NCBI GenBank assembly: GCA_963739455.1
Contig: CAVUAK010000001.1
Span: 1,504,001 to 1,568,000, forward strand
DNA from: an uncultured Gemmatimonadales bacterium
GTDB taxonomy: Bacteria; Gemmatimonadota; Gemmatimonadetes; Gemmatimonadales; GWC2-71-9
Length of the DNA: 64,000 nucleotides
Reading direction: 5' to 3'
Both the position numbers and the translations under genes were made by a program. The first letter of the stretch is position 1. Every line of letters starts with the position of its first letter. Under the pieces are notes generated by a model. It was given only the letters and a program-made list of their open reading frames with translations, did no database searches and had not been told where the DNA came from. Shown one piece after another: positions 5,322 to 60,658 of the stretch.

Positions 5322-5323
5322 GG

Positions 5324-10972: not shown

Positions 10973-11057
10973 AGTCGTCAGTCGACAGTCATCAGTCGAC
11001 AGTAAGTGGTCAGCTGCCGACTCACTGACGACTGCCGACTGTCGACTGAGAACTGCC
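10973..11057. repeat. inverted heptamer array element
   Basis: agtcgtc agtcgac agtcatc agtcgac ... actgacg actgccg actgtcg actgaga actgcc; between convergent GT genes. Confidence 0.88.
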
Positions 11058-11956: not shown

Positions 11957-12046
11957 CAGTCGTCAGTCATCAGTCGGCAGTCGTCAGTAAGTCATCAGCT
12001 GTCAGCTGCCCTCTCTCTGCCGACTGCCGACTGTCGACTGCCGACT
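11957..12046. repeat. inverted heptamer array element
   Basis: cagtcgt cagtcat cagtcgg cagtcgt cagt ... ctgccga ctgccga ctgtcga ctgccga ct; between divergent GT genes. Confidence 0.88.
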
Positions 12047-12066
12047 CTATCGTGTTATTCTCGTTC

Positions 12067-37361: not shown

Positions 37362-37447
37362 TAGCATCCATGAGTGCTGTGTTGGCATGTAACGTTTTTG
37401 ACACAAACACCTTAGCGCGTGAAGTCGCTCCCATCAGGGAGGTGTAC

Positions 37448-37996
37448 GTGCGCTGTCTCGCCCTCAATGCGTCGTTCGAACCGCTGACCATGGTACCCAT
37501 GCGTCGGGCGCTTCGGCTCGTCATCGAGGGCAAGGCGGAGATCGTTGAAGCGGATGGACTCGACCTTGTTCGAAGTGCCAGGCTGGCGTTGCCCAAACCT
37601 GTCATCATCCGCCTCGTCAAGTTCATCCACGTTCCCCGCCGCTTCCGCCGCCAAGTCACGAATACTTTCCTTTTCGCTCGCGACAGTTACCGCTGCCAAT
37701 ATTGCCATCGCGGTCACATCGAGCTGAAGCCGCGAGAGTGCCTCACGCGCGACCACCTGATCCCGATTTCCCGTGGTGGTGGGAACGAGTGGACTAACGT
37801 GGTTACGGCGTGCAGTTCGTGTAATACCCGGAAGGGCAACCACCTTCCGCATGAAATCGGCATGTTCCCGCTGACGCAGCCGCATGAACCTCACTTCGTG
37901 CATCTGTCATGGGCAGTGCGTCGCCTGACGCCGATTCAGGCCAAGTACATCCGGCTCTTCTACGGTGAAGAGGCCTTGAGGGCGCTGGGCGGGTAA
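37448..37996 (+). CDS. HNH endonuclease (McrA-like)
   Basis: LALNASFEPL, RDSYRCQYC, TRDHLIPISRGG..WTNVVTACSSCNTRKG; GGGAGG RBS. Confidence 0.92.
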   Translation: MRCLALNASFEPLTMVPMRRALRLVIEGKAEIVEADGLDLVRSARLALPKPVIIRLVKFIHVPRRFRRQVTNTFLFARDSYRCQYCHRGHIELKPRECLTRDHLIPISRGGGNEWTNVVTACSSCNTRKGNHLPHEIGMFPLTQPHEPHFVHLSWAVRRLTPIQAKYIRLFYGEEALRALGG

Positions 37997-38052: not shown

Positions 38053-38352
38053 GTGTCCAGCTCACAGGCGCCCAGTGACCCGAACCGTAGGTCGATCATG
38101 GACGTTCCGTGCGAAAGCCATCTGAACTGTCGATTTTTCAATAGTGCGTAGTGTGATACCGCTCACAAAAATGTGTATAAATTGTTGAAATCAAAGCTGT
38201 TACACGAGTTTCAGTAGCGCGATATAACCCGTGCGTTTTATTGTCGCCCGTCGCGCAAGATTTCACGCGACCGACATTACGCGCCCGGGTTTCTCTGTTC
38301 TGCAGGTTGGTCGGGCCCTCCGTTTACGAAGTCCCAGAGGAAGCAAACTCCT

Positions 38353-41300
38353 GTGTCGACACTTCGAATTTGCCGCTTTAACGCGGCTGCGATTCTCATT
38401 ATGGGTGCCCTCGCCGGCGCCTGCTCCGATACGCCTAGCAGCCCAAGCGGTGACGGCCTCAACCCACCACCAGCGGCTTCGCAGTTCGACATGCTCAATC
38501 TGAGTCCCATGGCCGCCTCCTCGGAGGCAGGAGCTCCGATGGCGCTCCTGATTGCGCCGACAACCTTTTGGGGTGCGGGCATTGGTTCCACGGTGACATG
38601 GAGCGTTCAGTCTGTTGATGGCGCATCCTCCGCCACGCTGCGCGAGGCACAGGACACCGGCACGGTCATGGTTGCGACAACTCCCGGGATGTACCTGCTC
38701 AAGGCGTCGAGCGAAGGTCTCGAGGGCTACAGCTTGATTGAGGTCGTCGAACGCGCGGCGGGCGCCGCGCTCCCAGCGGCGGTTGACAACGATGTGGCGG
38801 CGGCGAAGCTGACTACCCTGCGCATTCAGCCGCGTACTGCTAGCGTTGCTCCGGGCGGCACGATTCAGTTCATGACCAGCTACTCATGGAGTGAACCGTC
38901 CGGCCTGCCGACACTGACCTGGTCGGCATCGGGAGGCACCGCAACAGGAACCTGGGTGCCGGCGGGTGACTGGTATGCTCCTGGTGGGCGCTATGTGGCG
39001 CCATCGACCCCAGGGACCTACCGGGTCGTCGTCAGCTATGGATACGTTGCCGATACGGCGTTGGTCACCGTGGGTGCGGCCTCCGTGAGCTCCGCGGCCT
39101 CGGGGAGCAGCGCGCGACGCTTGATCTCCATTTCGACGACGCCGAGTGCGGTAACGCTGGCGCCTAACGCCACTGTGCTCATTCGTGCGGACTACAAATG
39201 GAATGTCTCGGCCGGGCCCCCGACCCTGAGCTGGACCGCAAGTGGCGGCACAGTGTCGCGCACTTGGGTCCCTGCGAATGGCTGGTATGCGCCGGCTGGC
39301 TTTTACACTGCCCCGGCGCAGCCCGGTAGCTACAGAGTGATCGCGAGCTACTCCAACATCGCGGACACCACCATCGTCACCGTCACTGGCACGCCAGTGC
39401 CAGCCCCGCCGCCGCCGGCTCCTAAGCCGACGCTCACTTTCTCGGCGGTGGTGCTGACCCCGGCGTCCGTGTCGCTGGCGCGTGGCGCGACGCAGCAGTT
39501 CAGTGCCATCGGGCGGATGAGCGACGGGAGCACCTCGAGCGTGGCGGTGACCTGGTCGGCTACAGGGGGGACGGTGTCGGGGACGGGCCTCTATACGGCG
39601 GGGGCGACCGCGGGGACGTACCGGGTGATCGCGGTGCGGCAGGGCGATACGAAGGCGGATACGTCGGCGGTGACGATCACGGTGGCGGCGACGCCGACGT
39701 TGAGCGCGGTGGAAGTGACGCCGGGGAGCGCGTCGGTGGGGACGGGCGGCACACAGCAGTTCAGCGCGCTCGGGCGGATGAGCGACAACAGCACCAGCGC
39801 GGTGACGGTGACGTGGAGTGCGACGGGGGGCACGATCAGCACCGGGGGCCTGTATACCGCGGGCAGCACCGCCGGCGCGTACCGGGTCATCGCGGTGCAG
39901 CAGGGGGGCACGCGGGCGGACACGGCCGCGGTGACGGTGACCGCGCCGGTGACGGGCGGGTTCACGGTGACGATGCCGGAGGGGCCGCGCGTGGTGTTGA
40001 ACACGGCGTATACGGCGCCGACGGGGAGCTCGATCGCTGTGGCGGCGGGGGGCAACCTGCAGGCAGCGTTGAACGGGGCGAGCTGTGGCGATGAGGTGGT
40101 ACTGGCGGCGGGGGCGACGTTCACGGGCAACTTCGTGTTGCCGGCGAAGGGGTGTGGCGCGAGCAACCGGATCCACGTGCGCTCGGCGGGGACGTTGCCG
40201 GCGGAGGGGCAGCGGATGACGCCGGCGCAGGCGGGGAGCCTGGCGAAGCTGGTGTCAGCGAACAGCACCCCGGCGCTCCAGACCGCCTCGGCGGCGAGTG
40301 GGTATCGCGTGATGGGGGTGGAGATCACGGTGAGCGCGGGGGCGGGGACGAACTACGGCATCGTCGCGCTGGGGAACGGCGAGACGACGTTGAGTCAGGT
40401 ACCGACGGATCTGATCCTGGATCGGGTCTACATCCACGGGAACCCGTCGCAGAACGTGCGGCGCGGCGTCGCGCTGAACAGCCGGTCCACCGCAATCATC
40501 GATAGTTATATCAGCGAGATCCATGAGTCGGGGGCCGACAACCAGGCGATCTGCGGCTGGACGGGCCCGGGCCCCTTCAAGATCGAGAACAACTATCTGG
40601 CCGCCGCGGGCCAGAACATCATGTTCGGCGGGTCGGACCCGTCGATCGCGAACCTCTCGCCCTCGGACATCGAGATCCGGCACAATCACCTGTTCAAGCC
40701 GTTGGCGTGGCAGTCGCAGGGCTGGATCGTCAAGAATATCGTGGAGTTCAAGCACGCACAGCGGGTGGTGGTCGAGGGGAACGTGCTGGAGAACCACTGG
40801 GTGGGCGCGCAGGCCGGCTTCGCGGTGGTGATGTTCTCGGTCAACCAGGGCCAGACGGCACCGTGGACGGTGGTGCAGGATATCCTGTGGCGGAACAACG
40901 TGCTGAAGAACATCCCCGCGGGCTTCAACCTCGCGGAGACGAACAGTCACGACAACCAGATCGGACAGTCGGCGCGGCGCATCGCGCTGGTGAACAACCT
41001 GCTCGAGCGTGTGGGCGAGAGCGCGGTCGGGGGCGTGGGCCGCATGGTGCAGGTGCTGGGCGACATCAACGGGGTGGCGGATGTGACGGTCGAGCACAAC
41101 ACGATGGTGTTCTCGACGGCGGGGGGCGCCACGCGCAACTCGTTCCTCATGTTCAGCGGGCCCAAGGCGCCGCGCCTGACCTTCCGCAATAACATCGCGG
41201 AGATGGGCAGCTACGGCATCATCCGCGTGGATGACGTGGGCGGCAGCGGGACGGCGGGCCTCAACAACTCCGCGACGCCGTGGCAAGTCCTGGGCAACGT

Positions 41301-41508
41301 GTTCGCCGGGAGCACGAGTGGGAACGCGTACCCCAGCGGGAATCCCGTGGCGGCGAGCACCAGTGTGGTCGGCTTCAGCAACGCCAGTGGCAGCGACTAC
41401 AGCCTGAGCGCCAGTTCCAGCTATCGCGGGCAGGCCACCGATGGCACCGACCCCGGCTACAATCGCGCCGCCCTCCTCACCGCCACCCAAGGGGTCGTCC
41501 TCCCCTGA
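38353..41508 (+). CDS. large lipoprotein: 4 clear (+1 degenerate) Ig-like repeats + C-terminal right-handed beta-helix domain
   Basis: LAGAC lipobox; repeats with W.A.GG...G.YTA..T.GTYRV..ADT; Asn/Ile-rich beta-helix-type repeats (IENN, IRHN, VEGN, WRNN, VEHN, FRNN). Confidence 0.85.
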   Translation: MSTLRICRFNAAAILIMGALAGACSDTPSSPSGDGLNPPPAASQFDMLNLSPMAASSEAGAPMALLIAPTTFWGAGIGSTVTWSVQSVDGASSATLREAQDTGTVMVATTPGMYLLKASSEGLEGYSLIEVVERAAGAALPAAVDNDVAAAKLTTLRIQPRTASVAPGGTIQFMTSYSWSEPSGLPTLTWSASGGTATGTWVPAGDWYAPGGRYVAPSTPGTYRVVVSYGYVADTALVTVGAASVSSAASGSSARRLISISTTPSAVTLAPNATVLIRADYKWNVSAGPPTLSWTASGGTVSRTWVPANGWYAPAGFYTAPAQPGSYRVIASYSNIADTTIVTVTGTPVPAPPPPAPKPTLTFSAVVLTPASVSLARGATQQFSAIGRMSDGSTSSVAVTWSATGGTVSGTGLYTAGATAGTYRVIAVRQGDTKADTSAVTITVAATPTLSAVEVTPGSASVGTGGTQQFSALGRMSDNSTSAVTVTWSATGGTISTGGLYTAGSTAGAYRVIAVQQGGTRADTAAVTVTAPVTGGFTVTMPEGPRVVLNTAYTAPTGSSIAVAAGGNLQAALNGASCGDEVVLAAGATFTGNFVLPAKGCGASNRIHVRSAGTLPAEGQRMTPAQAGSLAKLVSANSTPALQTASAASGYRVMGVEITVSAGAGTNYGIVALGNGETTLSQVPTDLILDRVYIHGNPSQNVRRGVALNSRSTAIIDSYISEIHESGADNQAICGWTGPGPFKIENNYLAAAGQNIMFGGSDPSIANLSPSDIEIRHNHLFKPLAWQSQGWIVKNIVEFKHAQRVVVEGNVLENHWVGAQAGFAVVMFSVNQGQTAPWTVVQDILWRNNVLKNIPAGFNLAETNSHDNQIGQSARRIALVNNLLERVGESAVGGVGRMVQVLGDINGVADVTVEHNTMVFSTAGGATRNSFLMFSGPKAPRLTFRNNIAEMGSYGIIRVDDVGGSGTAGLNNSATPWQVLGNVFAGSTSGNAYPSGNPVAASTSVVGFSNASGSDYSLSASSSYRGQATDGTDPGYNRAALLTATQGVVLP

Positions 41509-41567
41509 ACTCCCCGAACGGCGAACGCATGATCCCGGACCCCGCCACCCACATGGGTGCCGGGGTC
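39484..41567 (+). repeat. long direct repeat, copy 1 (2084 bp shared with 44012..46095; 39915..41508 also shared with 46627..48220)
   Basis: constant offsets of 4528 and 6712 bp; main and shadow ORF translations are identical across copies. Confidence 0.95.
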
Positions 41568-42007
41568 CGTAGGCTTCTGGACAGGTGGCCAATTGAACTT
41601 CCATGAGGAACCAAGCGGCAGTGTCACTTCACTGTAGCAAAGAAATGACACTAAAAGCATCCGTGAATTTGGGGAGTTGGCAGCCAGTCAAGATGCTACC
41701 GTGCAATAACTTTCGCAAAAATTGTGTGAGCTCCATCACAATGTTTGGCGTCAAGAACTTAAACATTGCAAGCGACCCTGCAGTGCCTGTAGGTTTTCCC
41801 CGTTCGTAACGCCCAAAAACTGTTTTTCAGGCACGCTGCCTCAGAGCAAGGCCGTCGAAAGGCGGCTACGCAGAGCCACGGAGCTAAGGTGCTCAGTCGA
41901 GCACTAAGCCAGCCGAGCCGCCGGCGAGCCGATCTCATCGATTGAGGTCGTGCTGTCCGGCGGCTCGATCGTATTGACTGGTCAATCTGCGATCCCGTCG
42001 GGGTGCC

Positions 42008-45000
42008 TTGATGGTGACCACTAGCTTCGAGTCACGGCTGATTGCCCGGATCCAACGGGCGTGCGTTGCTGCGATCCTCGCGGCCTCAGTGTCATGCACC
42101 CTCCAGGAGCCGGTCGTAACTGACCCCCTTGATCCGCCGGACGCCACGGCTGATACACTCGCCATTTCGCCCCAGAATGCCTCGGTTGCCACAGGAGACT
42201 CCATCACCTTTGCAGCTCCTGGTGAGACTGTGGTTGGCACGCCCGTTTCTGGGCCAGTCGAATGGACAGTCTCAGGTGGCACCGGTGCCTCGGTTACGAG
42301 CGCCGGAACCTTCCGCGCTTCAGCGGGTGGCGACTATGTGGTGCAGGCGGCCCGCGCCGGCCACTCGGGTCGGTCACGAGTGCACGTTTCCGGCTCCTCA
42401 TCGGCGCTCTCCTCAGTCAGGATCGCGCCCAACGTTCTCACTCTGCAACCAGGCGCCGCCTTCACTCTTGCGGTGTCGGGCTTGCTGCCGGACGGGACGG
42501 TGGTCCCGGTCAGCGGCAATTGGACGGCGACGGGAGGAACGATCACTTCGGGTGGGCGCTATACCGCAGGGAGTGCTCTGGGCACGTTCCGCGTCGTTGT
42601 TACGCAGCAGGGCGGCACGCTCGCTGATACCTCTGCCATTACGATTTCGAGTGCTGCGCCCACACTCACCGCGATCGAGCTTTCCCCACCCACCGTCAGT
42701 CTGTTACCGAGTGCATCACAGCAATTCAGCGCGATTGCACGGATGAGTGATGGCAGCACCGGAACCGCATCAATAGCCTGGAGTGCAACGGGAGGTACCA
42801 TCAGCTCCTCGGGGCTCTATCAGGCTGGGGCGACGACCGGCACGTTCCGCGTTGTTGCAGCGCAGCAGGGTGGCACCAAGGCCGACACCGCCGTCGTCAC
42901 CATTACTGCCCCGCCGCCCACACTTCAGGCCATCGAGGTGAGTCCGGGCAGCGTGAGCCTCGCGCCGAGCGCGTCGCAACAGTTCTCTGCTGTCGGACGC
43001 ATGAGCAACGGAACGTCATCGAGCGTGACGGTCTCGTGGTCGGCCACGGGTGGCACAATCACTTCGACGGGCGCGTACGTCGCCGGTTCAATCGCCGGAA
43101 CGTTCCGAGTGATCGCGGCACAGCAAGGTGGCGCGAAGGCCGATACTGCAAACGTGACCATTACCGCCGTGACGCCTCCCCCAACGGTCACACTGCAGGC
43201 CGTCGTGGTCTCGCCGGTGAACGCGAGCCTGGAGACGGGCGACACGCAGCAATTCTCGGCGGCTGGCCGGATGAGTGACGGCAGTACTTCGAGTCTTGCG
43301 GTGGCTTGGTCTGCTACGGGCGGCAGCATCTCGAGCGCCGGGCTGTACACGGCGGGCAGCACGGCGGGCAACTATTCGGTAGTTGCGAGACAGCAAGGCG
43401 GCACGTTGGCAGATACGTCGCTGGTGACGGTTACGGTGCCGGCGCCTACGCTGCAGGCGATTGTCATCTCACCGGCATCTATCGCACTGACGACCGGCGC
43501 TTCACAGCAGTTTTCGGCGACGGGGCGGATGAGCGATGGAAGCACGGGGAGCGTGTCGGTCACCTATTCGGCCACCGGCGGCTCCGTGAATGCAGCCGGT
43601 CTCTTTACCGCTGGTACGGTTGCGGGCTCATACCGGGTTATTGCCGTGCAGCAGGGCGGGTCGAAGGCCGATACGGCGGCGGTGACGATTGCTGTACCGG
43701 CGCCGACCCTGAGCGCGATCGAGATCTCACCGGGTTCCGTGAGTCTGGTCACGGGTGGATCCCAGCAGTTCTCTGCCGTCGGCCGGATGAGCGATGGGAG
43801 TACGGCGAGCATCCCGATCTCGTGGAACGCCACCGGTGGCACCGTCAGCTCGAGCGGGGCCTATGTGGCTGGTAATACTACCGGGACGTTCCGCGTCATT
43901 GCCGGGCAGCAGGGCGGCACGAGGGCGGATACATCTGCCGTTACCATCACCGCTCCTGCGCCGACATTCACCGCAGTTGAGGTGACTCCAGCAACTGCTA
44001 CCGTCGCGGCAGGCGCGACGCAGCAGTTCAGTGCCATCGGGCGGATGAGCGACGGGAGCACCTCGAGCGTGGCGGTGACCTGGTCGGCTACAGGGGGGAC
44101 GGTGTCGGGGACGGGCCTCTATACGGCGGGGGCGACCGCGGGGACGTACCGGGTGATCGCGGTGCGGCAGGGCGATACGAAGGCGGATACGTCGGCGGTG
44201 ACGATCACGGTGGCGGCGACGCCGACGTTGAGCGCGGTGGAAGTGACGCCGGGGAGCGCGTCGGTGGGGACGGGCGGCACACAGCAGTTCAGCGCGCTCG
44301 GGCGGATGAGCGACAACAGCACCAGCGCGGTGACGGTGACGTGGAGTGCGACGGGGGGCACGATCAGCACCGGGGGCCTGTATACCGCGGGCAGCACCGC
44401 CGGCGCGTACCGGGTCATCGCGGTGCAGCAGGGGGGCACGCGGGCGGACACGGCCGCGGTGACGGTGACCGCGCCGGTGACGGGCGGGTTCACGGTGACG
44501 ATGCCGGAGGGGCCGCGCGTGGTGTTGAACACGGCGTATACGGCGCCGACGGGGAGCTCGATCGCTGTGGCGGCGGGGGGCAACCTGCAGGCAGCGTTGA
44601 ACGGGGCGAGCTGTGGCGATGAGGTGGTACTGGCGGCGGGGGCGACGTTCACGGGCAACTTCGTGTTGCCGGCGAAGGGGTGTGGCGCGAGCAACCGGAT
44701 CCACGTGCGCTCGGCGGGGACGTTGCCGGCGGAGGGGCAGCGGATGACGCCGGCGCAGGCGGGGAGCCTGGCGAAGCTGGTGTCAGCGAACAGCACCCCG
44801 GCGCTCCAGACCGCCTCGGCGGCGAGTGGGTATCGCGTGATGGGGGTGGAGATCACGGTGAGCGCGGGGGCGGGGACGAACTACGGCATCGTCGCGCTGG
44901 GGAACGGCGAGACGACGTTGAGTCAGGTACCGACGGATCTGATCCTGGATCGGGTCTACATCCACGGGAACCCGTCGCAGAACGTGCGGCGCGGCGTCGC

Positions 45001-46036
45001 GCTGAACAGCCGGTCCACCGCAATCATCGATAGTTATATCAGCGAGATCCATGAGTCGGGGGCCGACAACCAGGCGATCTGCGGCTGGACGGGCCCGGGC
45101 CCCTTCAAGATCGAGAACAACTATCTGGCCGCCGCGGGCCAGAACATCATGTTCGGCGGGTCGGACCCGTCGATCGCGAACCTCTCGCCCTCGGACATCG
45201 AGATCCGGCACAATCACCTGTTCAAGCCGTTGGCGTGGCAGTCGCAGGGCTGGATCGTCAAGAATATCGTGGAGTTCAAGCACGCACAGCGGGTGGTGGT
45301 CGAGGGGAACGTGCTGGAGAACCACTGGGTGGGCGCGCAGGCCGGCTTCGCGGTGGTGATGTTCTCGGTCAACCAGGGCCAGACGGCACCGTGGACGGTG
45401 GTGCAGGATATCCTGTGGCGGAACAACGTGCTGAAGAACATCCCCGCGGGCTTCAACCTCGCGGAGACGAACAGTCACGACAACCAGATCGGACAGTCGG
45501 CGCGGCGCATCGCGCTGGTGAACAACCTGCTCGAGCGTGTGGGCGAGAGCGCGGTCGGGGGCGTGGGCCGCATGGTGCAGGTGCTGGGCGACATCAACGG
45601 GGTGGCGGATGTGACGGTCGAGCACAACACGATGGTGTTCTCGACGGCGGGGGGCGCCACGCGCAACTCGTTCCTCATGTTCAGCGGGCCCAAGGCGCCG
45701 CGCCTGACCTTCCGCAATAACATCGCGGAGATGGGCAGCTACGGCATCATCCGCGTGGATGACGTGGGCGGCAGCGGGACGGCGGGCCTCAACAACTCCG
45801 CGACGCCGTGGCAAGTCCTGGGCAACGTGTTCGCCGGGAGCACGAGTGGGAACGCGTACCCCAGCGGGAATCCCGTGGCGGCGAGCACCAGTGTGGTCGG
45901 CTTCAGCAACGCCAGTGGCAGCGACTACAGCCTGAGCGCCAGTTCCAGCTATCGCGGGCAGGCCACCGATGGCACCGACCCCGGCTACAATCGCGCCGCC
46001 CTCCTCACCGCCACCCAAGGGGTCGTCCTCCCCTGA
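42008..46036 (+). CDS. large lipoprotein: 9 Ig-like repeats + the same C-terminal beta-helix domain
   Basis: signal ending AILAASVSC; nine roughly 86-aa repeats (L.A.E.SP...QQFSA.GRMSDG); C-terminus identical to 38353..41508. Confidence 0.87.
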   Translation: MMVTTSFESRLIARIQRACVAAILAASVSCTLQEPVVTDPLDPPDATADTLAISPQNASVATGDSITFAAPGETVVGTPVSGPVEWTVSGGTGASVTSAGTFRASAGGDYVVQAARAGHSGRSRVHVSGSSSALSSVRIAPNVLTLQPGAAFTLAVSGLLPDGTVVPVSGNWTATGGTITSGGRYTAGSALGTFRVVVTQQGGTLADTSAITISSAAPTLTAIELSPPTVSLLPSASQQFSAIARMSDGSTGTASIAWSATGGTISSSGLYQAGATTGTFRVVAAQQGGTKADTAVVTITAPPPTLQAIEVSPGSVSLAPSASQQFSAVGRMSNGTSSSVTVSWSATGGTITSTGAYVAGSIAGTFRVIAAQQGGAKADTANVTITAVTPPPTVTLQAVVVSPVNASLETGDTQQFSAAGRMSDGSTSSLAVAWSATGGSISSAGLYTAGSTAGNYSVVARQQGGTLADTSLVTVTVPAPTLQAIVISPASIALTTGASQQFSATGRMSDGSTGSVSVTYSATGGSVNAAGLFTAGTVAGSYRVIAVQQGGSKADTAAVTIAVPAPTLSAIEISPGSVSLVTGGSQQFSAVGRMSDGSTASIPISWNATGGTVSSSGAYVAGNTTGTFRVIAGQQGGTRADTSAVTITAPAPTFTAVEVTPATATVAAGATQQFSAIGRMSDGSTSSVAVTWSATGGTVSGTGLYTAGATAGTYRVIAVRQGDTKADTSAVTITVAATPTLSAVEVTPGSASVGTGGTQQFSALGRMSDNSTSAVTVTWSATGGTISTGGLYTAGSTAGAYRVIAVQQGGTRADTAAVTVTAPVTGGFTVTMPEGPRVVLNTAYTAPTGSSIAVAAGGNLQAALNGASCGDEVVLAAGATFTGNFVLPAKGCGASNRIHVRSAGTLPAEGQRMTPAQAGSLAKLVSANSTPALQTASAASGYRVMGVEITVSAGAGTNYGIVALGNGETTLSQVPTDLILDRVYIHGNPSQNVRRGVALNSRSTAIIDSYISEIHESGADNQAICGWTGPGPFKIENNYLAAAGQNIMFGGSDPSIANLSPSDIEIRHNHLFKPLAWQSQGWIVKNIVEFKHAQRVVVEGNVLENHWVGAQAGFAVVMFSVNQGQTAPWTVVQDILWRNNVLKNIPAGFNLAETNSHDNQIGQSARRIALVNNLLERVGESAVGGVGRMVQVLGDINGVADVTVEHNTMVFSTAGGATRNSFLMFSGPKAPRLTFRNNIAEMGSYGIIRVDDVGGSGTAGLNNSATPWQVLGNVFAGSTSGNAYPSGNPVAASTSVVGFSNASGSDYSLSASSSYRGQATDGTDPGYNRAALLTATQGVVLP

Positions 46037-46095
46037 ACTCCCCGAACGGCGAACGCATGATCCCGGACCCCGCCACCCACATGGGTGCCGGGGTC
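44012..46095 (+). repeat. long direct repeat, copy 2
   Basis: matches 39484..41567, including the stop codon and downstream hairpin. Confidence 0.95.
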
Positions 46096-46103
46096 GTTTT
46101 GTT
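46066..46103 (+). terminator. intrinsic terminator after the second lipoprotein gene
   Basis: gaccccg-ccaccc-acat-gggtgc-cggggtc followed by gttttgtt; the same hairpin without a T-tract is at 41538..41567. Confidence 0.65.
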
Positions 46104-46300
46104 CCTGCTCCACGATACGCTCCTATCACGGCGATTGTGGCCCCCCGAGCCCCATGACGGTACAGTGAATGCAACGTTGGAATGGGTTGGCCGTTGCTGC
46201 TCTAGCCCTCTCAGGCCTAATGCCGTGGCGCAGGCGGAATACAAGGGGCAACGGCGGCCAATGGCTATCTTGAACTGGATCTCCTCGGGGCGGAGGTGTT

Positions 46301-48220
46301 ATGAGTGCAGGAATCTTCACTAAGGTTGGGCGACCGGTGTGCATCCTGGCAGCCGTGGCCCTCATTGCCTGCGCGCAATCCGATGCACTATCGGATGGCC
46401 TCAGCCCACTTGTCTCCAGTGTTGAGATCACCCCTGCCTCAGTCAGCCTTGCCGTGAGCGGCGTTCAGCAGTTCAGCGTGCGCGCGACTTATGTCGATGG
46501 CTCGACGGGCGTCGAAACCGTCACCTGGTCCGCAACCGGCGGCACTATGTCGCAGTCAGGGTCTTACACGGCAGGCTCTGTCCCGGGATCATACTCCGCG
46601 ATTGCAGTGCATGCCGTGAGCGGGAAGGCGGACACGGCCGCGGTGACGGTGACCGCGCCGGTGACGGGCGGGTTCACGGTGACGATGCCGGAGGGGCCGC
46701 GCGTGGTGTTGAACACGGCGTATACGGCGCCGACGGGGAGCTCGATCGCTGTGGCGGCGGGGGGCAACCTGCAGGCAGCGTTGAACGGGGCGAGCTGTGG
46801 CGATGAGGTGGTACTGGCGGCGGGGGCGACGTTCACGGGCAACTTCGTGTTGCCGGCGAAGGGGTGTGGCGCGAGCAACCGGATCCACGTGCGCTCGGCG
46901 GGGACGTTGCCGGCGGAGGGGCAGCGGATGACGCCGGCGCAGGCGGGGAGCCTGGCGAAGCTGGTGTCAGCGAACAGCACCCCGGCGCTCCAGACCGCCT
47001 CGGCGGCGAGTGGGTATCGCGTGATGGGGGTGGAGATCACGGTGAGCGCGGGGGCGGGGACGAACTACGGCATCGTCGCGCTGGGGAACGGCGAGACGAC
47101 GTTGAGTCAGGTACCGACGGATCTGATCCTGGATCGGGTCTACATCCACGGGAACCCGTCGCAGAACGTGCGGCGCGGCGTCGCGCTGAACAGCCGGTCC
47201 ACCGCAATCATCGATAGTTATATCAGCGAGATCCATGAGTCGGGGGCCGACAACCAGGCGATCTGCGGCTGGACGGGCCCGGGCCCCTTCAAGATCGAGA
47301 ACAACTATCTGGCCGCCGCGGGCCAGAACATCATGTTCGGCGGGTCGGACCCGTCGATCGCGAACCTCTCGCCCTCGGACATCGAGATCCGGCACAATCA
47401 CCTGTTCAAGCCGTTGGCGTGGCAGTCGCAGGGCTGGATCGTCAAGAATATCGTGGAGTTCAAGCACGCACAGCGGGTGGTGGTCGAGGGGAACGTGCTG
47501 GAGAACCACTGGGTGGGCGCGCAGGCCGGCTTCGCGGTGGTGATGTTCTCGGTCAACCAGGGCCAGACGGCACCGTGGACGGTGGTGCAGGATATCCTGT
47601 GGCGGAACAACGTGCTGAAGAACATCCCCGCGGGCTTCAACCTCGCGGAGACGAACAGTCACGACAACCAGATCGGACAGTCGGCGCGGCGCATCGCGCT
47701 GGTGAACAACCTGCTCGAGCGTGTGGGCGAGAGCGCGGTCGGGGGCGTGGGCCGCATGGTGCAGGTGCTGGGCGACATCAACGGGGTGGCGGATGTGACG
47801 GTCGAGCACAACACGATGGTGTTCTCGACGGCGGGGGGCGCCACGCGCAACTCGTTCCTCATGTTCAGCGGGCCCAAGGCGCCGCGCCTGACCTTCCGCA
47901 ATAACATCGCGGAGATGGGCAGCTACGGCATCATCCGCGTGGATGACGTGGGCGGCAGCGGGACGGCGGGCCTCAACAACTCCGCGACGCCGTGGCAAGT
48001 CCTGGGCAACGTGTTCGCCGGGAGCACGAGTGGGAACGCGTACCCCAGCGGGAATCCCGTGGCGGCGAGCACCAGTGTGGTCGGCTTCAGCAACGCCAGT
48101 GGCAGCGACTACAGCCTGAGCGCCAGTTCCAGCTATCGCGGGCAGGCCACCGATGGCACCGACCCCGGCTACAATCGCGCCGCCCTCCTCACCGCCACCC
48201 AAGGGGTCGTCCTCCCCTGA
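46301..48220 (+). CDS. lipoprotein: 1 Ig-like repeat + the same C-terminal beta-helix domain
   Basis: GGAGG RBS; ALIAC lipobox; identical to the other two from ADTAAVTVTAP to the stop. Confidence 0.87.
   Translation: MSAGIFTKVGRPVCILAAVALIACAQSDALSDGLSPLVSSVEITPASVSLAVSGVQQFSVRATYVDGSTGVETVTWSATGGTMSQSGSYTAGSVPGSYSAIAVHAVSGKADTAAVTVTAPVTGGFTVTMPEGPRVVLNTAYTAPTGSSIAVAAGGNLQAALNGASCGDEVVLAAGATFTGNFVLPAKGCGASNRIHVRSAGTLPAEGQRMTPAQAGSLAKLVSANSTPALQTASAASGYRVMGVEITVSAGAGTNYGIVALGNGETTLSQVPTDLILDRVYIHGNPSQNVRRGVALNSRSTAIIDSYISEIHESGADNQAICGWTGPGPFKIENNYLAAAGQNIMFGGSDPSIANLSPSDIEIRHNHLFKPLAWQSQGWIVKNIVEFKHAQRVVVEGNVLENHWVGAQAGFAVVMFSVNQGQTAPWTVVQDILWRNNVLKNIPAGFNLAETNSHDNQIGQSARRIALVNNLLERVGESAVGGVGRMVQVLGDINGVADVTVEHNTMVFSTAGGATRNSFLMFSGPKAPRLTFRNNIAEMGSYGIIRVDDVGGSGTAGLNNSATPWQVLGNVFAGSTSGNAYPSGNPVAASTSVVGFSNASGSDYSLSASSSYRGQATDGTDPGYNRAALLTATQGVVLP
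46627..48220 (+). repeat. long direct repeat, copy 3 (1594 bp)
   Basis: matches 39915..41508 and 44443..46036; ends exactly at TGA. Confidence 0.95.
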
Positions 48221-48245: not shown

Positions 48246-49583
48246 CTAGGTCGCCCCGCGTGCGAGATGCTGCCGTGCCGTCGCCGATTGCTGCTGGACC
48301 ACATCAGCGAGTACCAGCAGCAGCGCTAGATGAATGTAGAGATATGTGAGGAAAGCGAACGTCCCCCAGATCCCGGCAACAAGATATCCGAAGAGGCTGA
48401 ATTCCAGGAGCTGTAACCGCCGCCATTCCGGACTTCTCGATACGTTGCTCGCCTTCCTGCGCACACTGCGCGCTCTCAGAATGATCACCAGGACAATCGA
48501 GCCGAAGAGGATCAGGCCCGGGAAGCCCGTCTCGGCGAGGACCTCGAGGTACGTGTCATGCACATCGCGCGCGCCCAAGTGGGGACTGTACTCCTTGTTG
48601 GCCTTCTCGTAACGCCCGAGCCCGACTCCTAGCACCGGGTGATCACCGATGACCTGGAAGCTTGTCTGCCAAATTTCCCAGCGCTGGGTCGCCGAGCCTT
48701 CCGGGTCAACCTCTGCCAGGTTCTCGGTGTTCGTCGCATTCTTAAGTCCGGCCAGACGTTGCCACACACCGCTCGGCGCTACGAAGATTGCGACGAAAGC
48801 GACGGCGGCGGTAGCGAAAAGCAGCCGTCCCCGGTTCCGCTTCTCGCCTGAGATAACGAGCAAGACGAAGAGCGTGAGCCCGATAAAGACTGCGCGGGAC
48901 TGCGTCATGAGGATGACAATCGGAAATACCACCACCGCGGCGAGCGCGCCAAGCCGCACAAGCTTCGGGACGTCGCGGCGCACGTAGCTTGCCGCGACGG
49001 CGAGTGGGAGCAATGTCATTGCTGCCATATCATTAGCGTTGCCGAATGCGCCGCGCCAGGCGGGGCGGCCAAAGTCGGCATTGTGATAGATGGCGTAATT
49101 GAAGATCGTGCCTCTGGCAGGGTAGAGTGCAAAGAGCACAATCAGCATCAGCAGGAAGAGGTTTAGGACTCGTGGATCACGGAGGGCGTTGTAAGCCACG
49201 AGAAAGATGATGCCGACCTTGGCGAGATCCTCCACCGGGGCCATCGTTCCCGGCATTGTGCTGATCGAGTCGCCGATTGCCGCCCAGAAAATGAAGAGTG
49301 CAAGCAACCAGAAGGCGAGCGGCCACTTGAGGGCCTTTCCGCTGGTTACCAGTCCAACGACGGCGACGGCCATCGCGATGTACGCGATCGGGGCGATGAA
49401 CGTCGTGATGGCTATGAAGTACGCAAAGAAGCCGATGCGGTCCAGCGACCAGCGGACCTGCTTGAGCTGTAAAAAGCTCCGAAGTGATTGGTGCCGGGCA
49501 CTTGGCTCAACTCCTGTGACCGGGGGCGGTAACGGGGCGACCGCTGTACTGGGATAGCCGGAATAGCCCCTTTCGCGCTTCAT
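48246..49583 (-). CDS. O-antigen ligase/Wzy-family polymerase
   Basis: multiple TMs; FGNAND, TQSRA, R.EIW, HPVLGVGLG, HDTYLEVLAETGFPG. Confidence 0.87.
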   Translation of the reverse strand: MKRERGYSGYPSTAVAPLPPPVTGVEPSARHQSLRSFLQLKQVRWSLDRIGFFAYFIAITTFIAPIAYIAMAVAVVGLVTSGKALKWPLAFWLLALFIFWAAIGDSISTMPGTMAPVEDLAKVGIIFLVAYNALRDPRVLNLFLLMLIVLFALYPARGTIFNYAIYHNADFGRPAWRGAFGNANDMAAMTLLPLAVAASYVRRDVPKLVRLGALAAVVVFPIVILMTQSRAVFIGLTLFVLLVISGEKRNRGRLLFATAAVAFVAIFVAPSGVWQRLAGLKNATNTENLAEVDPEGSATQRWEIWQTSFQVIGDHPVLGVGLGRYEKANKEYSPHLGARDVHDTYLEVLAETGFPGLILFGSIVLVIILRARSVRRKASNVSRSPEWRRLQLLEFSLFGYLVAGIWGTFAFLTYLYIHLALLLVLADVVQQQSATARQHLARGAT

Positions 49584-50425
49584 GCGACGAGCGCCTCAAT
49601 TTCGGAGCCATCACCAATGCGCTTCATGACATGCAGTGCGCGGCCGTGCTTGGTGAACGCCGTTCCGTGATTGATTCCGTCACTTCCGGTGCGCGCGACA
49701 ACCAGGACGCCATTGTTCCCCAGCCAGTCGCGTACGTTCGCAATTCCAGCCCGTAGCGTCGGTTCGTCGAAATACGAGCGATTCAGCAGGTTCGCCACCC
49801 GGATGACCCCGAAGCGGCCTTGCCACTCGGGTCGCGGAATGAAGATGTCGTGGGCAATCACGCTCACATTGGGATTGCCCGTCAATTGCCCACTGATCAG
49901 GGACACGACTCGTTGACGCCCGAAGGCCCGGCTGACAGTGCTCATGGCGCTCCCGGCGGCGAACGCCGCGTGCGATACCAAGTTCCGCAGCGACCCGTTC
50001 CAACTGGTCGGCCGGACGAGCAGCCTGCGACTCGTGCGGAGCAGCATTGCCCGTCCCCCCTCATCCGATAGCAACTCCACGCCGCCGATGCTGGTGAGTA
50101 CGCCGTTGAGCGTGCGATCGCACCCCACCACGCGCAGGGTCCGCACGATCGGCCTGAGGGCATCGACCAGCTCGGCGGTCGATATGCCACTCGAAATACC
50201 TACATCCAGCAGGTCGAAATCCGTGCGCCCATCCAGCATTGAGAGGATCAGTCGGTTCACGTCGTCCAGCCGGCGCGACGAAGTCATCTTCGTCGTGCCA
50301 TCACTCTGGTGCATGTGGGAAAGGAGGAACTCCCTGGCAAGCTCGTTCTCGGGATCGCTGACCCCGCTTTCGAGAATCTGCGCTAAGGAGCGATCAGTTC
50401 CCACGGCATCCTTCAGCGATGACAT
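49580..50425 (-). CDS. putative SAM-dependent methyltransferase-fold protein
   Basis: LLDVGISSG, IRVANLLNRSYF; co-oriented in the operon. Confidence 0.6.
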   Translation of the reverse strand: MSSLKDAVGTDRSLAQILESGVSDPENELAREFLLSHMHQSDGTTKMTSSRRLDDVNRLILSMLDGRTDFDLLDVGISSGISTAELVDALRPIVRTLRVVGCDRTLNGVLTSIGGVELLSDEGGRAMLLRTSRRLLVRPTSWNGSLRNLVSHAAFAAGSAMSTVSRAFGRQRVVSLISGQLTGNPNVSVIAHDIFIPRPEWQGRFGVIRVANLLNRSYFDEPTLRAGIANVRDWLGNNGVLVVARTGSDGINHGTAFTKHGRALHVMKRIGDGSEIEALVA

Positions 50426-50436
50426 GCCAAGCCCTT

Positions 50437-51759
50437 CTACCAGCAAATGCCCGTGTAGCGCGCGGCCCCCCAGGCGTCGCGCGAGGTCGCGCGGGCGAGG
50501 TCCAAGACCGTCTGGTGCTCCGTGAGCAGGGGGCCGAGGTTGCGGAATTCCCTTGAACTGTTGCCGATCACGATCACCTCGGACCGACTGGTGACCGCTT
50601 CGACCACCGGCTGCATGAGCGACCAGATGTGCGGAATCTCCTTCTCGATATACTCACGATTAGTTCCGATGAGCCTTGCCTGTGACACTTCGGCGTCGTA
50701 AATCGCGAGTTCGTAGCCCTTGCCCACGAGGCGCTCGATGAGCGCGACCATTGGTGACTCCCGAAGATCATCAGTTCCTTCCTTGAAGGCCATGCCCAGG
50801 ATGCCGATCCGCCGGTGGCCGAGTGCCGCGATCATCTCGAAGGCCCGGTCGATCTGCCGGGCGTTGCTCTCGAGTACCGATTGCAACACCGGGGTGGAGA
50901 TGTCGAGTTCCCGGGCGCGATAGGTGATCGCGCGGAGGTCCTTCGGGAGGCACGACCCGCCGAAGGCAAAGCCCGGCTTCAGGTAGGCCGCGGAAATGTT
51001 CAGTTTGCGGTCCTCGGAGAAGAGCCGCATCACTTCGTGGCTGTCGACGCCGACTGCCTTACAGATGTTCCCGATCTCGTTGGCGAATCCAACCTTCAGC
51101 CCGTGATAGCAGTTGGAGGCATACTTTACCATTTCCGCGACCGCGACGGGAACCACGTGAATCGGGGCGCCAACCGCGGCATAGAGTGCGGCCACCGCGT
51201 CACCCGCCGCCCGGTCGTCTGTGCCGACGATTGTAAAGGGCGGATCATAAAAATCCTTGATCGACGTTCCCTCGCGAAGGAACTCAGGGTTCATGCAGAC
51301 GTTGATGTTGTTGCCGGGGGCCCGGCCCAGGCCGCGTGAGATAGCTGGCCGCACGACACCCGCGATGGTTCCCGGGAGAACAGTGCTCCTGATCACCACC
51401 GTGTGGCGGCGGTCACCGACATCGCGCAGCGCTTCGCCGATCTGTTCACAGACGCGCTCGACATACTTGAGGTCGAGGCTCCCGTTCGGGCGGCTTGGTG
51501 TGCCGACGCAAATCAGCGATAGGGTAGATGCCTGAACCGCCTCGGCGGGACTGGTTGTGGCCCGCAGGCGCCCGCCGGCGCGCGCCGCGCCGATCAGTTC
51601 GGAAATACCGGTCTCGACGATCGTCGCCTCGCCCCGGTTGACCAGGTCCACCTTGAACGGACTGACGTCGACGCCGATGACATCGTGCCCGTCCTTCGCA
51701 AAGCAGGCGGCTGATACACATCCGACGTATCCCATTCCGAAAATGCTGATCGCTGTCAC
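50437..51759 (-). CDS. nucleotide-sugar 6-dehydrogenase, GDP-mannose dehydrogenase (AlgD)-like
   Basis: ISIFGMGYVG, CVGTPS..NGSLDL.YV..VC, RSTVLPGT, NPEFLREG, PGFAFGGSCLPKD, FKEGTDDLRESP. Confidence 0.9.
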   Translation of the reverse strand: MTAISIFGMGYVGCVSAACFAKDGHDVIGVDVSPFKVDLVNRGEATIVETGISELIGAARAGGRLRATTSPAEAVQASTLSLICVGTPSRPNGSLDLKYVERVCEQIGEALRDVGDRRHTVVIRSTVLPGTIAGVVRPAISRGLGRAPGNNINVCMNPEFLREGTSIKDFYDPPFTIVGTDDRAAGDAVAALYAAVGAPIHVVPVAVAEMVKYASNCYHGLKVGFANEIGNICKAVGVDSHEVMRLFSEDRKLNISAAYLKPGFAFGGSCLPKDLRAITYRARELDISTPVLQSVLESNARQIDRAFEMIAALGHRRIGILGMAFKEGTDDLRESPMVALIERLVGKGYELAIYDAEVSQARLIGTNREYIEKEIPHIWSLMQPVVEAVTSRSEVIVIGNSSREFRNLGPLLTEHQTVLDLARATSRDAWGAARYTGICW

Positions 51760-52997
51760 GGGGCGCTCGAGATCGAGGTGGTGGAACGACGGCGGTCGAT
51801 TGTTGCCTCACACGCCGTCGCGAACGCGGAGGAGATGCTTGTCCAAGAGAAATGCTGCCGGACGTACGCCGTCGCGTGGGCGGCAAGTTCATTCGCCGTG
51901 ACACGGTTTCGGAGAAGCGAGATGCATGCCGCCGCCTGTTCTTCCGGGCTGTCGGCGCGCAGGAAATGCCGCCCGTCCTCCACCGGTAGGCCCTCGGCGC
52001 CGATGGCTGTGGATACCACGGGGCAGCCCATGGCCATGGCTTCAAAGATCTTGAGTCTGGTGCCGCCGCCAACACGCAGTGGCACCGCCATCAACGCCGC
52101 GGAGGCTAAATACGGTCGTACGTCGGGCACCGAGCCGGTTACCTCAACTCCCGGATGGCGGTCGGCAAGGCGTTGCACCCTCGTCCCGGGCCTTCGCCCG
52201 ACGATCTGGAAGCGCGCACCCGGGACTTCGGACTGGATCAACGGGAGGACGTCCTCGGCGAAATGCTCCACCGCGTCCTCATTGGGCATCCAGTCCATCG
52301 ACCCCACGAAGACAATGGCGTTTGCCTGTCTATCGGTACCCGGCTCCGGCCGGAAGTAGTCAGTATCGACGCCAGTGGCGACAGTTGACACGCTTGCCGT
52401 GCCGTACTGCTTCGTGAAGTACTCAGCATCCACGTCCGAGACCGCGACGACATGATCGAAGCGGCGGCAAGTTTCACCCTCGAAGCGGGCCATGCGCCGC
52501 CACTGCTGCTCAAAAAATGCTCCCCGCAGCCGGCTTCCCGGCACCTCCGCATGCCGGCGCCATATTTCCGCCTCGACATTGTGCTGAAAGAGGACGGACG
52601 GTACACCCACTGGGTGCGCCACATTTACTGCGGGAGCGAGGAAGTCGCATACGAGGACGTCCACGCCACTGGCCGCCGTCATGCGCGCGACCGCTTCGGA
52701 AAAGCCCCGCACCTTGTAGCGCTTGAGGGCGTACGGCAATGGCGAGGCCAAGCTCCTCGCGACGTCGACCGCAAATGCTGCGGTGCCTCGCGCCGGAGGG
52801 TGGAATGGCACGCGTACTACTTGCGTAGCATACTCGGAGCTCCGAGCCAAGGCATCCGGCGCGGCTGACCCATCGTCCAGGCAGACGTAGGTCACCTCGT
52901 GCGAACGAGCCAGTCCACGCAGCATTTCGTAGGTGCGGATGCGACCACCCTTGTCGACCGGATGCAGGAGCTCCGTCTTGAGCCACAGGATGCGCAT
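51756..52997 (-). CDS. glycosyltransferase family 4
   Basis: HPVDKGGRIRT, FVGSMDWMPN, GGGTRLKIFEAMAMG. Confidence 0.88.
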   Translation of the reverse strand: MRILWLKTELLHPVDKGGRIRTYEMLRGLARSHEVTYVCLDDGSAAPDALARSSEYATQVVRVPFHPPARGTAAFAVDVARSLASPLPYALKRYKVRGFSEAVARMTAASGVDVLVCDFLAPAVNVAHPVGVPSVLFQHNVEAEIWRRHAEVPGSRLRGAFFEQQWRRMARFEGETCRRFDHVVAVSDVDAEYFTKQYGTASVSTVATGVDTDYFRPEPGTDRQANAIVFVGSMDWMPNEDAVEHFAEDVLPLIQSEVPGARFQIVGRRPGTRVQRLADRHPGVEVTGSVPDVRPYLASAALMAVPLRVGGGTRLKIFEAMAMGCPVVSTAIGAEGLPVEDGRHFLRADSPEEQAAACISLLRNRVTANELAAHATAYVRQHFSWTSISSAFATACEATIDRRRSTTSISSAP

Positions 52998-52998
52998 C

Positions 52999-57113: not shown

Positions 57114-57115
57114 CG

Positions 57116-58255
57116 TTACGCCTCCACCTCGCGCCCAAGACTTTCATAGCAGGCCACCCATCGGGCCGTCGCTGCGCGTGCAGTGAAGTGCTCCAGAACC
57201 TCAGCCCGCGCGTTGTCGCTGAGCTGGAGTGCCAGCTCCGGGCAATCGAGCAGTCGGCATGCTGAGTCGGCCAGCCCACTCGCATCACCGACCGTGACGA
57301 GGAGCCCAGTGTGACCTTCGTGGACCAATGAGGGGATGCCGCCCGCGTCCGTCGACACGACTGGTAGCCCTGCGGCGAATGCCTCAAGGATCGACAGGGG
57401 GACATTATCAATCGCCGACCCGTTCAGGAAGATTTCGGACTCGCCATAGAGGCCGTCCATGTCCTCGGGACGCACCGGACCGGTGAAGCGGACGTGCCTC
57501 AAGCCGAGAGCAGTGGCTTGGTGGCGCAACTGCTCACTGAGCGAGCCATGTCCGGCGACGATCATTTGTGCGTCCGGATGGCGCGTCTGAATCAGCGCAA
57601 AGGCGGATATCACATCTGCTACGCGATACAGGGACTCATGGTTACGGTTGACGATGAAGCGCGGCTGCACAGCGGCGCGACGCCGATAAGTGACGTGCTC
57701 AATCTCGACGAAGTTGGGCGCCACTTCCGCGCGGAAACCGAAACGTGCGAATACATCAACCAGGTATCCGGACGGAACAACGATGCAATCGGCCCATCGC
57801 AGCGCGCGACGCATCAGCCACTCCCATCGGGTGAGGTGATCCTCCGCCTCGCCGCTGTGATAGTTGAGGAGAACCCGCTTCCCATGGCGCCGCGCGGCCA
57901 GCATCGCTGGCAGGGGTGCCAGTACGAATGACCAGTAGCTCGCCGAATAGGCGTGGATCACATCGTACAGGGGCACCGACTCCCGAAGGGACCAGGCATA
58001 TGCCAAGCTACGGGCCGCAGTCCGGAGGTACTTGATCCTGCCCAGCGGGGCGAGCCAGCCAGTGAGGTCTGGATCGACTGGCAGAAAGCCGGCAGAGATG
58101 GCGCCCGAAGCCTCCAAGGCCCGTCGGAGCCGCTCGAGCTGCACCGCTTGGCCGCCGAGGTAGCGCAACGACGGCCCGACCAGCAGCACCCGGAGCGGCC
58201 GGTGATCGGCGCGACCGGTCAACCCTAGTGCCCCATCTAACTGCTTGTCAAGCAT
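57116..58255 (-). CDS. glycosyltransferase family 4
   Basis: GGQAVQ, NYHSGEA, DNVPLSILEAFAAGLPVVST.AGGIP. Confidence 0.88.
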   Translation of the reverse strand: MLDKQLDGALGLTGRADHRPLRVLLVGPSLRYLGGQAVQLERLRRALEASGAISAGFLPVDPDLTGWLAPLGRIKYLRTAARSLAYAWSLRESVPLYDVIHAYSASYWSFVLAPLPAMLAARRHGKRVLLNYHSGEAEDHLTRWEWLMRRALRWADCIVVPSGYLVDVFARFGFRAEVAPNFVEIEHVTYRRRAAVQPRFIVNRNHESLYRVADVISAFALIQTRHPDAQMIVAGHGSLSEQLRHQATALGLRHVRFTGPVRPEDMDGLYGESEIFLNGSAIDNVPLSILEAFAAGLPVVSTDAGGIPSLVHEGHTGLLVTVGDASGLADSACRLLDCPELALQLSDNARAEVLEHFTARAATARWVACYESLGREVEA

Positions 58256-58323
58256 GGTGTTGCGCACGGTGCCCTGAGAGTGGCGAAGCTGTCGTAGGGG
58301 AGCAGGAAGTGTGCCCTCCATTA

Positions 58324-60524: not shown

Positions 60525-60642
60525 CGCGCGCCTACCCGACCTTCCAGTGAAGTTAGCTCGCAAAGTCGATCCGATATATTGGCAAGATCGGGACCGTTTG
60601 TGAAAGCTTTGCGGCAGTGATAGAAGCCACGGAAGTTGTTGA

Positions 60643-60658
60643 CGGCACAAGGCTTGCG
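60643..60658 (+). promoter_or_regulatory. putative sigma54 (-24/-12) promoter
   Basis: CGGCACA-AGGC-TTGCG: GG-N10-GC with GGCAC and TTGC, about 100 bp upstream of the GT4 at 60757. Confidence 0.5.

Follow-up and report, generated by a model that had tools for sequence, protein, structure and literature searches.

The stretch analysed here (hereafter the window) comprises 64,000 nucleotides from an uncultured Gemmatimonadales bacterium (assembly GCA_963739455.1, contig CAVUAK010000001.1, positions 1,504,001 to 1,568,000), whose genome, G000, spans 3.6 Mb in four contigs and is 84% complete. It contains a tandem array of three genes for predicted lipoproteins, each combining a stalk of immunoglobulin-like (Ig) repeats with one and the same beta-helix head (Table 1). 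An earlier interpretation made without database searches (the sequence-only reading) described three co-oriented genes with different signal peptides and Ig counts, and the open reading frames (ORFs) confirm this description. The GTG start and N-terminus of gene 1 are kept in orthologues, and the gene 2 ORF runs from 42008 to 46036 (1342 aa, or 1341 aa from the ATG at 42011). The signals of genes 1, 2 and 3 (LAGAC, ASVSC and LIAC) are distinct, and all three show the bacterial lipoprotein pattern of a hydrophobic segment ending in Cys. However, motif inspection against the lipobox consensus finds only gene 3 canonical, so the lipoboxes proposed for all three genes hold as Cys-ending signals but as the canonical motif only once. 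A profile built from seven gene 2 repeats detects 4, 9 and 1 Ig repeats, in agreement with the proposed counts of nine and one; the fifth repeat proposed for gene 1 (divergent, at about aa 60–131) was seen by eye, with no profile match.

Alignment of the copies bore out the reported sharing with 0 mismatches in both blocks. Genes 1 and 2 have 2,084 bp in common, and all three genes have 1,594 bp in common (39915–41508 = 44443–46036 = 46627–48220). The 5′ junctions map inside Ig repeats, as had been claimed, at codon 378 of gene 1 and codon 669 of gene 2 for the longer block and at codons 110 and 813 for the shorter one. In a repeat search of the four contigs, the array blocks are the sole repeats of at least 300 bp at 100% identity; the others listed are 425 bp at 98.8% and 1,207 bp at 95.0%. 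No further head copy was found in the 84%-complete genome.

Table 1 Features of the array and its surroundings (positions in the window)
Feature	Position	Strand	Remarks
HNH-domain gene	37436..37996	+	Six nearest copies within the genus are 96–99% identical; upstream of the variable locus, at its conserved edge
Conserved non-coding leader of stalk A	38124..38352	+	77–87% identical in 8/9 related loci searched
Gene 1, stalk type A; predicted lipoprotein, beta-helix head	38353..41508	+	ORF 1051 aa; 4 profile-detected Ig repeats, probably 5
2,084-bp block, copy 1	39484..41567	+	Most of two Ig repeats, head, stop and a 59-bp tail with hairpin
GC-rich hairpin after gene 1, possible terminator	41536..41568	+	The copy behind gene 2 precedes a U-rich run
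c-di-GMP-I (RF01051) riboswitch aptamer, leader of gene 2	41835..41925	+	52.5 bits against a gathering threshold of 35; full-length
Gene 2, stalk type B; predicted lipoprotein, 9 Ig repeats and the same head	42011..46036	+	Big_2 matches
2,084-bp block, copy 2	44012..46095	+	Identical to 39484–41567
Gene 3, stalk type C; predicted lipoprotein, 1 Ig repeat and the same head	46301..48220	+	ORF 639 aa
1,594-bp head block, third copy	46627..48220	+	Identity stops at the stop codon
Beta-helix head, 517 aa, same in three genes	46667..48217	+	
Polysaccharide genes: Wzy_C, UDP-sugar dehydrogenase, GT4 glycosyltransferases, AsnB-like amidotransferase, heparinase II/III-like protein, deacetylase	48246..60650	-	Locus runs past the window
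Heparinase II/III-like protein	54945-57113	-	

Searching the genus with the stalk sequence recovered the same locus in relatives, with the order tyrS, penicillin-binding protein, argR, HNH and then the array in genomes G001, G003, G006 and G007, and with stalk A and its leader in G008; single-protein searches returned 10 and 7 loci and added one informative stalk-A locus (L137). These same-genus loci have orthologous stalks, with heads that are 99–100% identical within an array. What the sequence-only reading missed is that the head behaves as a swappable cassette, with heads of unrelated fold in its place throughout the arrays of relatives. Stalks A, B, D and C of G003 all carry one 400-aa propeller-type head (99.2–100% identical DNA over 1.2–1.5 kb), and the genome also has one diverged beta-helix gene. 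Contig C7 of G006 has four genes with a related propeller head (99.8% within the array, 33% identical to the G003 head), and its contigs C3 and C2 have stalks A, B and D with a 475-aa head (99.5–100% identical) plus a copy diverged to 80%. A distant relative of the 475-aa head occurs in frameshifted genes of G007, stalk A bears propeller heads in G008 and L137 and is followed by a frameshifted beta-helix in G001, and L135 pairs an unrelated stalk with a head that looks by eye like a glycoside hydrolase. The propeller head is WD40- and PL22-like by weak profile matches and a language-model match. The 475-aa head was modelled as a beta-sandwich plus an (alpha/alpha)6 barrel at a predicted local distance difference test score (pLDDT) of 84.6, nearest to GH105, GH88 and sugar epimerases at Z of about 23. 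The head types show no profile similarity for beta-helix against propeller or propeller against barrel (hhalign probability 0.13% and 0.18%), and no BLAST match for beta-helix against barrel. On both stalk trees the head labels need four changes, where the minimum is two, and the closest relative of the G000 stalk A is that of G008, which bears a propeller.

The two G006 loci offer a comparison between close neighbours. Between C3 and C7 the flank (7,681 bp) is 98.5% identical and stalk B (2,653 bp) 94.9% identical, with different heads; both contigs carry the HNH gene, and the polysaccharide genes of C2 and C7 are only about 30–50% alike. C3/C2 and C7 would be haplotypes of co-assembled strains, and C3 would likewise join C2. 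The small C2/C3 contigs (L102, L104, L116 and L117) duplicate the single-copy C7 locus, and the bin likely mixes two strains. As separate observations at these loci, C2 has a polyketide synthase between array genes, and in G001 a match to the ALIL pseudoknot (L018:2315-2431) between the stalk A head and the stalk B riboswitch suggests an insertion sequence within the array.

Within arrays, identity starts in the last one or two Ig repeats and stops at or near the stop codon; in G003 and G006 it ends at the stop or within a few codons or bases of it. Between genomes, about 300 bp after the head of stalk A are largely unalignable, and homology returns at or shortly before the riboswitch of stalk B. 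Beyond the genus, 19 of the 31 genomes with fetched loci carry at least two head copies, mostly behind N-termini that differ in length and contain a signal Cys. In a quick tree (41 heads), the paralogues of each genome group as a single clade for 12 of 15 multi-copy genomes. Sliding windows over heads otherwise 50–80% identical reveal tracts of 99–100% in G041, G406 and G245; exact tracts of 563, 335 and 141 bp lie in heads that are 79%, 70% and 69% identical as protein, and G206 joins these three genomes in having identical tracts in diverged paralogues. The tract of G041 cannot stem from simple tandem duplication, as its two genes are in opposite orientation. At that locus (L016:10391-17587) the convergent beta-helix genes, with their 563-bp exact internal tract, could also invert their 3′ ends by recombination. 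In G420, two head-to-tail beta-helix copies share 1,358 exact bases on a 5.9-kb contig (L074, C101), which may be an assembly effect; this duplicate was counted in the phylum averages of fourfold-site GC (GC4) given below, but not as separate evidence.

The shared sequence also differs in composition. GC at third codon positions (GC3) is 0.92–0.93 in the shared block against 0.67–0.72 in the unique parts, and within the Ig codons of gene 2 it is 145/155 where shared and 322/451 where unshared. In the Ig repeats of G000, G003 and G006, GC4 rises with the identity between copies, from 80% (1656/2076 sites) below 80% identity to 92% (519/566) at 80–95% and 98% (364/370) at 95% or more. Shared heads reach 0.97–1.00 and unshared heads in the same loci 0.77–0.82, and a value of 0.97 is reached by only 2 of 2,047 heuristically called G000 ORFs. 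Across the phylum, head-minus-stalk GC4 is +0.16 for genes with exact tracts (16 genes), +0.04 for those without (26) and +0.03 for single copies (9). The control was a 95%-identical duplicated lipoprotein-like gene near contig ends (G000 C1:5059-6264 and C3:5878-7083), whose GC4 is 0.75–0.77. The grading of GC by copy identity argues against both an artefact and one recent duplication. Thus, of the proposal that the head was homogenised by recent duplication or gene conversion, recombination is supported, but recent duplication alone fits poorly, given a GC shift that is absent from the 95%-identical duplicate. GC-biased gene conversion in bacteria is a debated idea; the pattern fits such a process, apparently long-running, with codon selection as a further possible source. 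A dedicated recombinase or reverse transcriptase family was not found among the 50 window ORFs and 18 downstream G000 ORFs scanned, which do not cover all ORFs.

The shared head had been taken for a right-handed beta-helix, and structure prediction returned this fold at a pLDDT of 94.6, with neighbours resembling glycan enzymes. The nearest solved folds are the AlgE4 A-module (2pyg; Z = 29.3, root-mean-square deviation 2.2, 325 residues aligned), the PL31 lyase 6KFN (Z = 29.0) and RbmB (Z = 27.5), which are effectively tied, followed by many other beta-helices, non-enzymes included; the top Foldseek match is 6kfn (E = 1.5e-7). The head has no match in Pfam or NCBIfam. Of 7,991 candidates scored, at least 1,242 are relatives, most of the named ones being hypothetical or Ig-like proteins, and homologues and related records are labelled Gemmatimonadales, Gemmatimonadaceae and Acidobacteria by their sources. 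In 99 aligned sequences D195, Q197, K260, N261, E264, K266 and R270 are invariant, and the invariant Lys, Glu, Arg, Asp and Gln residues lie close together on successive rungs of the modelled helix. The head could be a lysine-base polysaccharide lyase, with K266 or K260 as candidate base, acting on a uronate-containing, amidated polymer made next door. We give this assignment even odds, and it is our first choice because PsAly and RbmB use a lysine base, described as Lys221 (PMC6796002) and K227 (PMC12993940), respectively; RbmB acts by cleaving an amide-modified polymer of the cell that makes it. K266 is placed on a PL6 strand end by a sub-threshold profile segment only. That the head only binds, or that it is an epimerase or hydrolase, we regard as unlikely, and equally so. 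A 1,061-aa protein (P0002) consists of two tandem copies of the beta-helix head, with no Ig stalk.

The array sits at the start of a much longer polysaccharide region, and the tie between head and flanking cluster proposed in the sequence-only reading is supported by co-occurrence. In 401 genomes of the phylum, scored at three candidates per genome and with head copy numbers as lower bounds, the head occurs in 32, the heparinase-like gene in 43 and both in 26, so that the heparinase-like gene is present in 26/32 genomes with the head versus 17/369 without it (25/31 when the unpublished G190 is removed). Among 74 selected neighbourhood ORFs, heparinase-like and dehydrogenase genes lie beside the arrays of G041, G357, G331 and G174, the last three also with an amidotransferase.

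Stalk architecture is retained at the same-genus loci. Stalk B has nine repeats in 4/4 intact copies and stalk D five in 3/3, with 3–4 detected in stalk A, and the signal Cys is invariant in 11 B/D-type stalks. Stalk length thus appears conserved by position across the genus, which fits the idea, put forward in the sequence-only reading, of graded display. The genes also seem to differ in regulation as well as in length, a point that reading had missed, given the riboswitch that precedes gene 2. This aptamer gives the sole Rfam match of the window, and G000 contains three RF01051 matches in all; the two other copies (C1:1108216 and C1:589112) share an AGAGCA start. In the 10 related loci searched there are 10 RF01051 matches before B and D stalks, with 8/10 loci having one. 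Although it is a full-length match to the c-di-GMP-I (GEMM-I) family, the aptamer has A at the position aligned to nucleotide 20, as in 11/11 copies, a residue described as marking cyclic GMP-AMP (cGAMP)-binding or bispecific aptamers (PMC6140456). The Hypr class of GGDEF enzymes is described as recognised by a serine (PMC6456294), which occurs in 0/11 readable GGDEF motifs of the 84%-complete G000, where no dedicated cGAMP synthase was found; cyclic di-GMP is therefore the likelier ligand of the predicted aptamer. The hairpin after gene 1 gives z scores of only −1.4 and −1.9, and a terminator scan did not call it. The stalk-A leader has no Rfam match and, with covariation almost nil (2/29 pairs), was not called an RNA; it is possibly a promoter or regulator site. 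A sigma-70 scan found no promoter.

We interpret the locus as a tandem lipoprotein array bordering a variable polysaccharide locus, with stalks of fixed length carrying one identical head that is likely kept so by gene conversion, likely acts on the cell's own surface polysaccharide and is swapped array-wide in relatives (probability roughly 0.62). Recombination would start in the last Ig repeats, where all stalks are homologous to one another. Because stalk DNA flanks the head on both sides, the head and a roughly 300-bp tail could be exchanged between haplotypes by ordinary homologous recombination and copied between neighbours, with conversion that is GC-biased and long-running. The head is predicted to cleave or remodel the strain's own surface polysaccharide. 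More tentatively, at somewhat under even odds, the stalks may vary the height at which the head is held on the cell surface, with the longest stalk controlled by a cyclic dinucleotide, and so serve to trim or release matrix; surface exposure would follow from stalk length.

Several observations weigh against this interpretation. The 100% identity is read from assembled sequence, and its exact value may be slightly polished. Several forks lack support in both sets of trees, which were built by a quick method, G174 and G331, members of one genus, keep orthologous pairing of their heads, and the heads of G032 do not cluster. The 563-bp tract of G041 shows no GC rise (−0.04 and −0.09), and the highest-GC genes of G000 are conserved metabolic ones, so that codon selection can give similar values. 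The genomes counted for co-occurrence are kin and not independent samples, for which reason no P value is given; the heparinase-like gene is missing from 6/32 head genomes, and the match of head to polysaccharide is imperfect, since G003 and G008 have this gene yet propeller array heads. Non-lytic proteins are among the fold neighbours (the adhesin PfbA at Z = 25.4, NosD and Vag8), sequence likeness to 6KFN is limited to about 55 N-terminal residues, and the candidate catalytic residues are assigned from invariance and position. Finally, the window head has Gln220 where 95/98 homologues have Glu, Ala216 where 92/98 have Glu and Phe294 where most array heads have Lys, and it may therefore be altered or inactive.

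The identity of exactly 100%, together with the frameshift-rich assemblies of several relatives, could point to an assembly or polishing artefact, in which one gene was misassembled into three or divergent copies were flattened by consensus. We consider this highly improbable, as the 5′ part of every gene is open, unique and matched by orthologues in other genomes, a few single-nucleotide polymorphisms remain between copies in relatives, and an assembler cannot lift fourfold-site GC to 97% or grade it by repeat identity. In addition, contigs of the 200-contig G008 assembly break at the head end and just past the last Ig repeat, the pattern to be expected if a true repeat had collapsed, and the G003 stalk-A protein is found on two contigs in the protein collection. 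The GC shift might instead have been inherited, if a high-GC donor had recently supplied the head and last repeats and a single duplication had followed; the locus lies in an island that varies horizontally (GC3 0.72–0.79), and conversion in G041 left GC where it was. Yet four arrays whose heads belong to three unrelated families all show this shift, which is also seen, graded by identity, in the Ig repeats of the stalks; diverged homologues of these heads within the same genomes stand at 0.75–0.82, and the phylum-wide excess accompanies exact tracts. A donor origin is accordingly quite doubtful, if less so than an artefact.

Two further explanations concern function, and both are unlikely, although less remote. 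The array could be an ordinary by-product of neutral conversion among tandem same-strand repeats in mobile polysaccharide islands, leaving uniform heads and stalk lengths with no special role. Conversion among tandem paralogues is common, the ORFs scanned in the window include no recombinase or reverse transcriptase, G000 yielded no additional head copy, and heads are only 50–80% identical in many relatives. What speaks against a by-product is that the repeat numbers of stalks B and D persist despite head changes, that the riboswitch is retained before both, that identity in G003 and G006 ends at or near the stop as though coding identity were retained, and that an unrelated head occupies three or four genes of each such array. 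Marginally easier to entertain is that the heads are non-catalytic lectins or adhesins, tethering the cell's own polysaccharide or binding kin cells at several heights. The E220Q and E216A changes of the window copy and the presence of PfbA among the fold neighbours agree with such a role, for which control by a c-di-GMP-type riboswitch would be suitable, as it is for matrix adhesins; the invariant charged and polar residues on consecutive rungs do not, nor does the fact that the closest folds of the three head types are mostly sugar-acting enzymes.

The ingredients of the proposed system (gene conversion, C-terminal domain swapping, lyases acting on a cell's own polymer and riboswitch control) are largely familiar, and the combination appears new; no description of the array or of array-wide head replacement was found in searches of an open-access library. 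Bacterial concerted evolution is exemplified by the Helicobacter bab genes, Campylobacter flaA/flaB and tufA/tufB. As in these cases, paralogues here are closer within than between genomes and have patchy identical tracts, but it is the distal functional head that is homogenised, and from strain to strain its place is taken by unrelated folds. Phage tailspikes and polymorphic toxins combine a conserved N-terminal carrier with a swappable C-terminal domain, which in tailspikes matches the polysaccharide type; the array stalk and head correspond to these parts, but in a chromosomal lipoprotein array whose copies converge on one head per genome, and, unlike in polymorphic toxins, with no toxin or immunity pairing seen at the array. 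Silent-cassette and recombinase-driven variation (vlsE, pilE, shufflons and diversity-generating retroelements) differs in turn, as only three head copies were found in the 84%-complete genome and the scanned ORFs include neither a recombinase nor a reverse transcriptase.

The Azotobacter AlgE1-7 mannuronan C-5 epimerases, offered as a precedent in the sequence-only reading, hold for the fold but not for the catalytic motif, which we take to be DPH[DE] and which occurs in 0/99 aligned sequences; Y..D.H is also missing from the head. AlgE catalysis is described as depending on Y149/D152/H154 in an account that presents the enzymes as a modular family, encoded by several genes, whose substrate is the polysaccharide of the producing cell (PMC8824271). 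AlgE proteins have R-modules, no lipid anchor and diversified sequences and are described as exported by EexDEF (PMC6140867), whereas the window genes have a Big_2 Ig stalk, a lipoprotein signal Cys and identical heads. PL31 (PsAly, 6KFN), PL6 and Vibrio RbmB, lyases in which a catalytic Lys acts with a Tyr/Arg acid and cation ligands, share with the head its fold (Z = 26–29), and the invariant cleft lysines of the head are candidates for a base like Lys221 of PsAly and K227 of RbmB; these lyases differ from the head in sequence (13–20% identity), in family assignment and in that the window heads are arrayed on stalks in identical copies.

More broadly, and with less confidence than in the interpretation of the locus itself, Gemmatimonadales may keep sets of stalks (about 4–5, 9, 5 and 1 Ig repeats), the long ones riboswitch-controlled, that display one glycan-active head drawn from unrelated folds and matched to polysaccharide type, with conversion propagating and maintaining the head and leaving a repeat-by-repeat GC footprint; beta-helix, propeller and barrel heads would then represent three new carbohydrate-active families. 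The usual logic of surface-protein variation would then be reversed, with copies uniform within a genome and the whole head swapped between strains, and each strain would likely be able to retool its whole stalk set for its own surface polysaccharide. The three uncharacterised families resemble glycan enzymes and have a candidate substrate encoded next door, in a phylum with a barely studied envelope, and the homologous repeats, which lie in one frame and differ in conversion history and graded fourfold GC, offer an unusually well-controlled test of GC-biased conversion.

A role for the HNH gene as the recombining enzyme lacks support, as the gene belongs to the conserved core and also occurs in G005 and G010, where no stalk repeat was found in the stretches around it (that of G005 extends only about 450 bp past HNH). 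Further Ig-stalk lipoproteins lie outside the array. About 30 kb deeper in the polysaccharide region of G000, a fourth one (L022:8187-11060; C1:1583186-1586059), a paralogue of stalks B and D, has a different 209-aa head that is not homogenised (GC4 0.77), and a similar head is found on a 394-codon ORF (L022:2421-3602). A separate single-copy Ig-stalk lipoprotein with a conserved 158-aa head and no Pfam family occurs across the genus (L023, L108, L111, L112 and L115). Elsewhere in the window, imperfect palindromes at 10968-11055 and 11957-12051 form an inverted pair around a glycosyltransferase gene (11022-11936), and another lies at 5323-5442.

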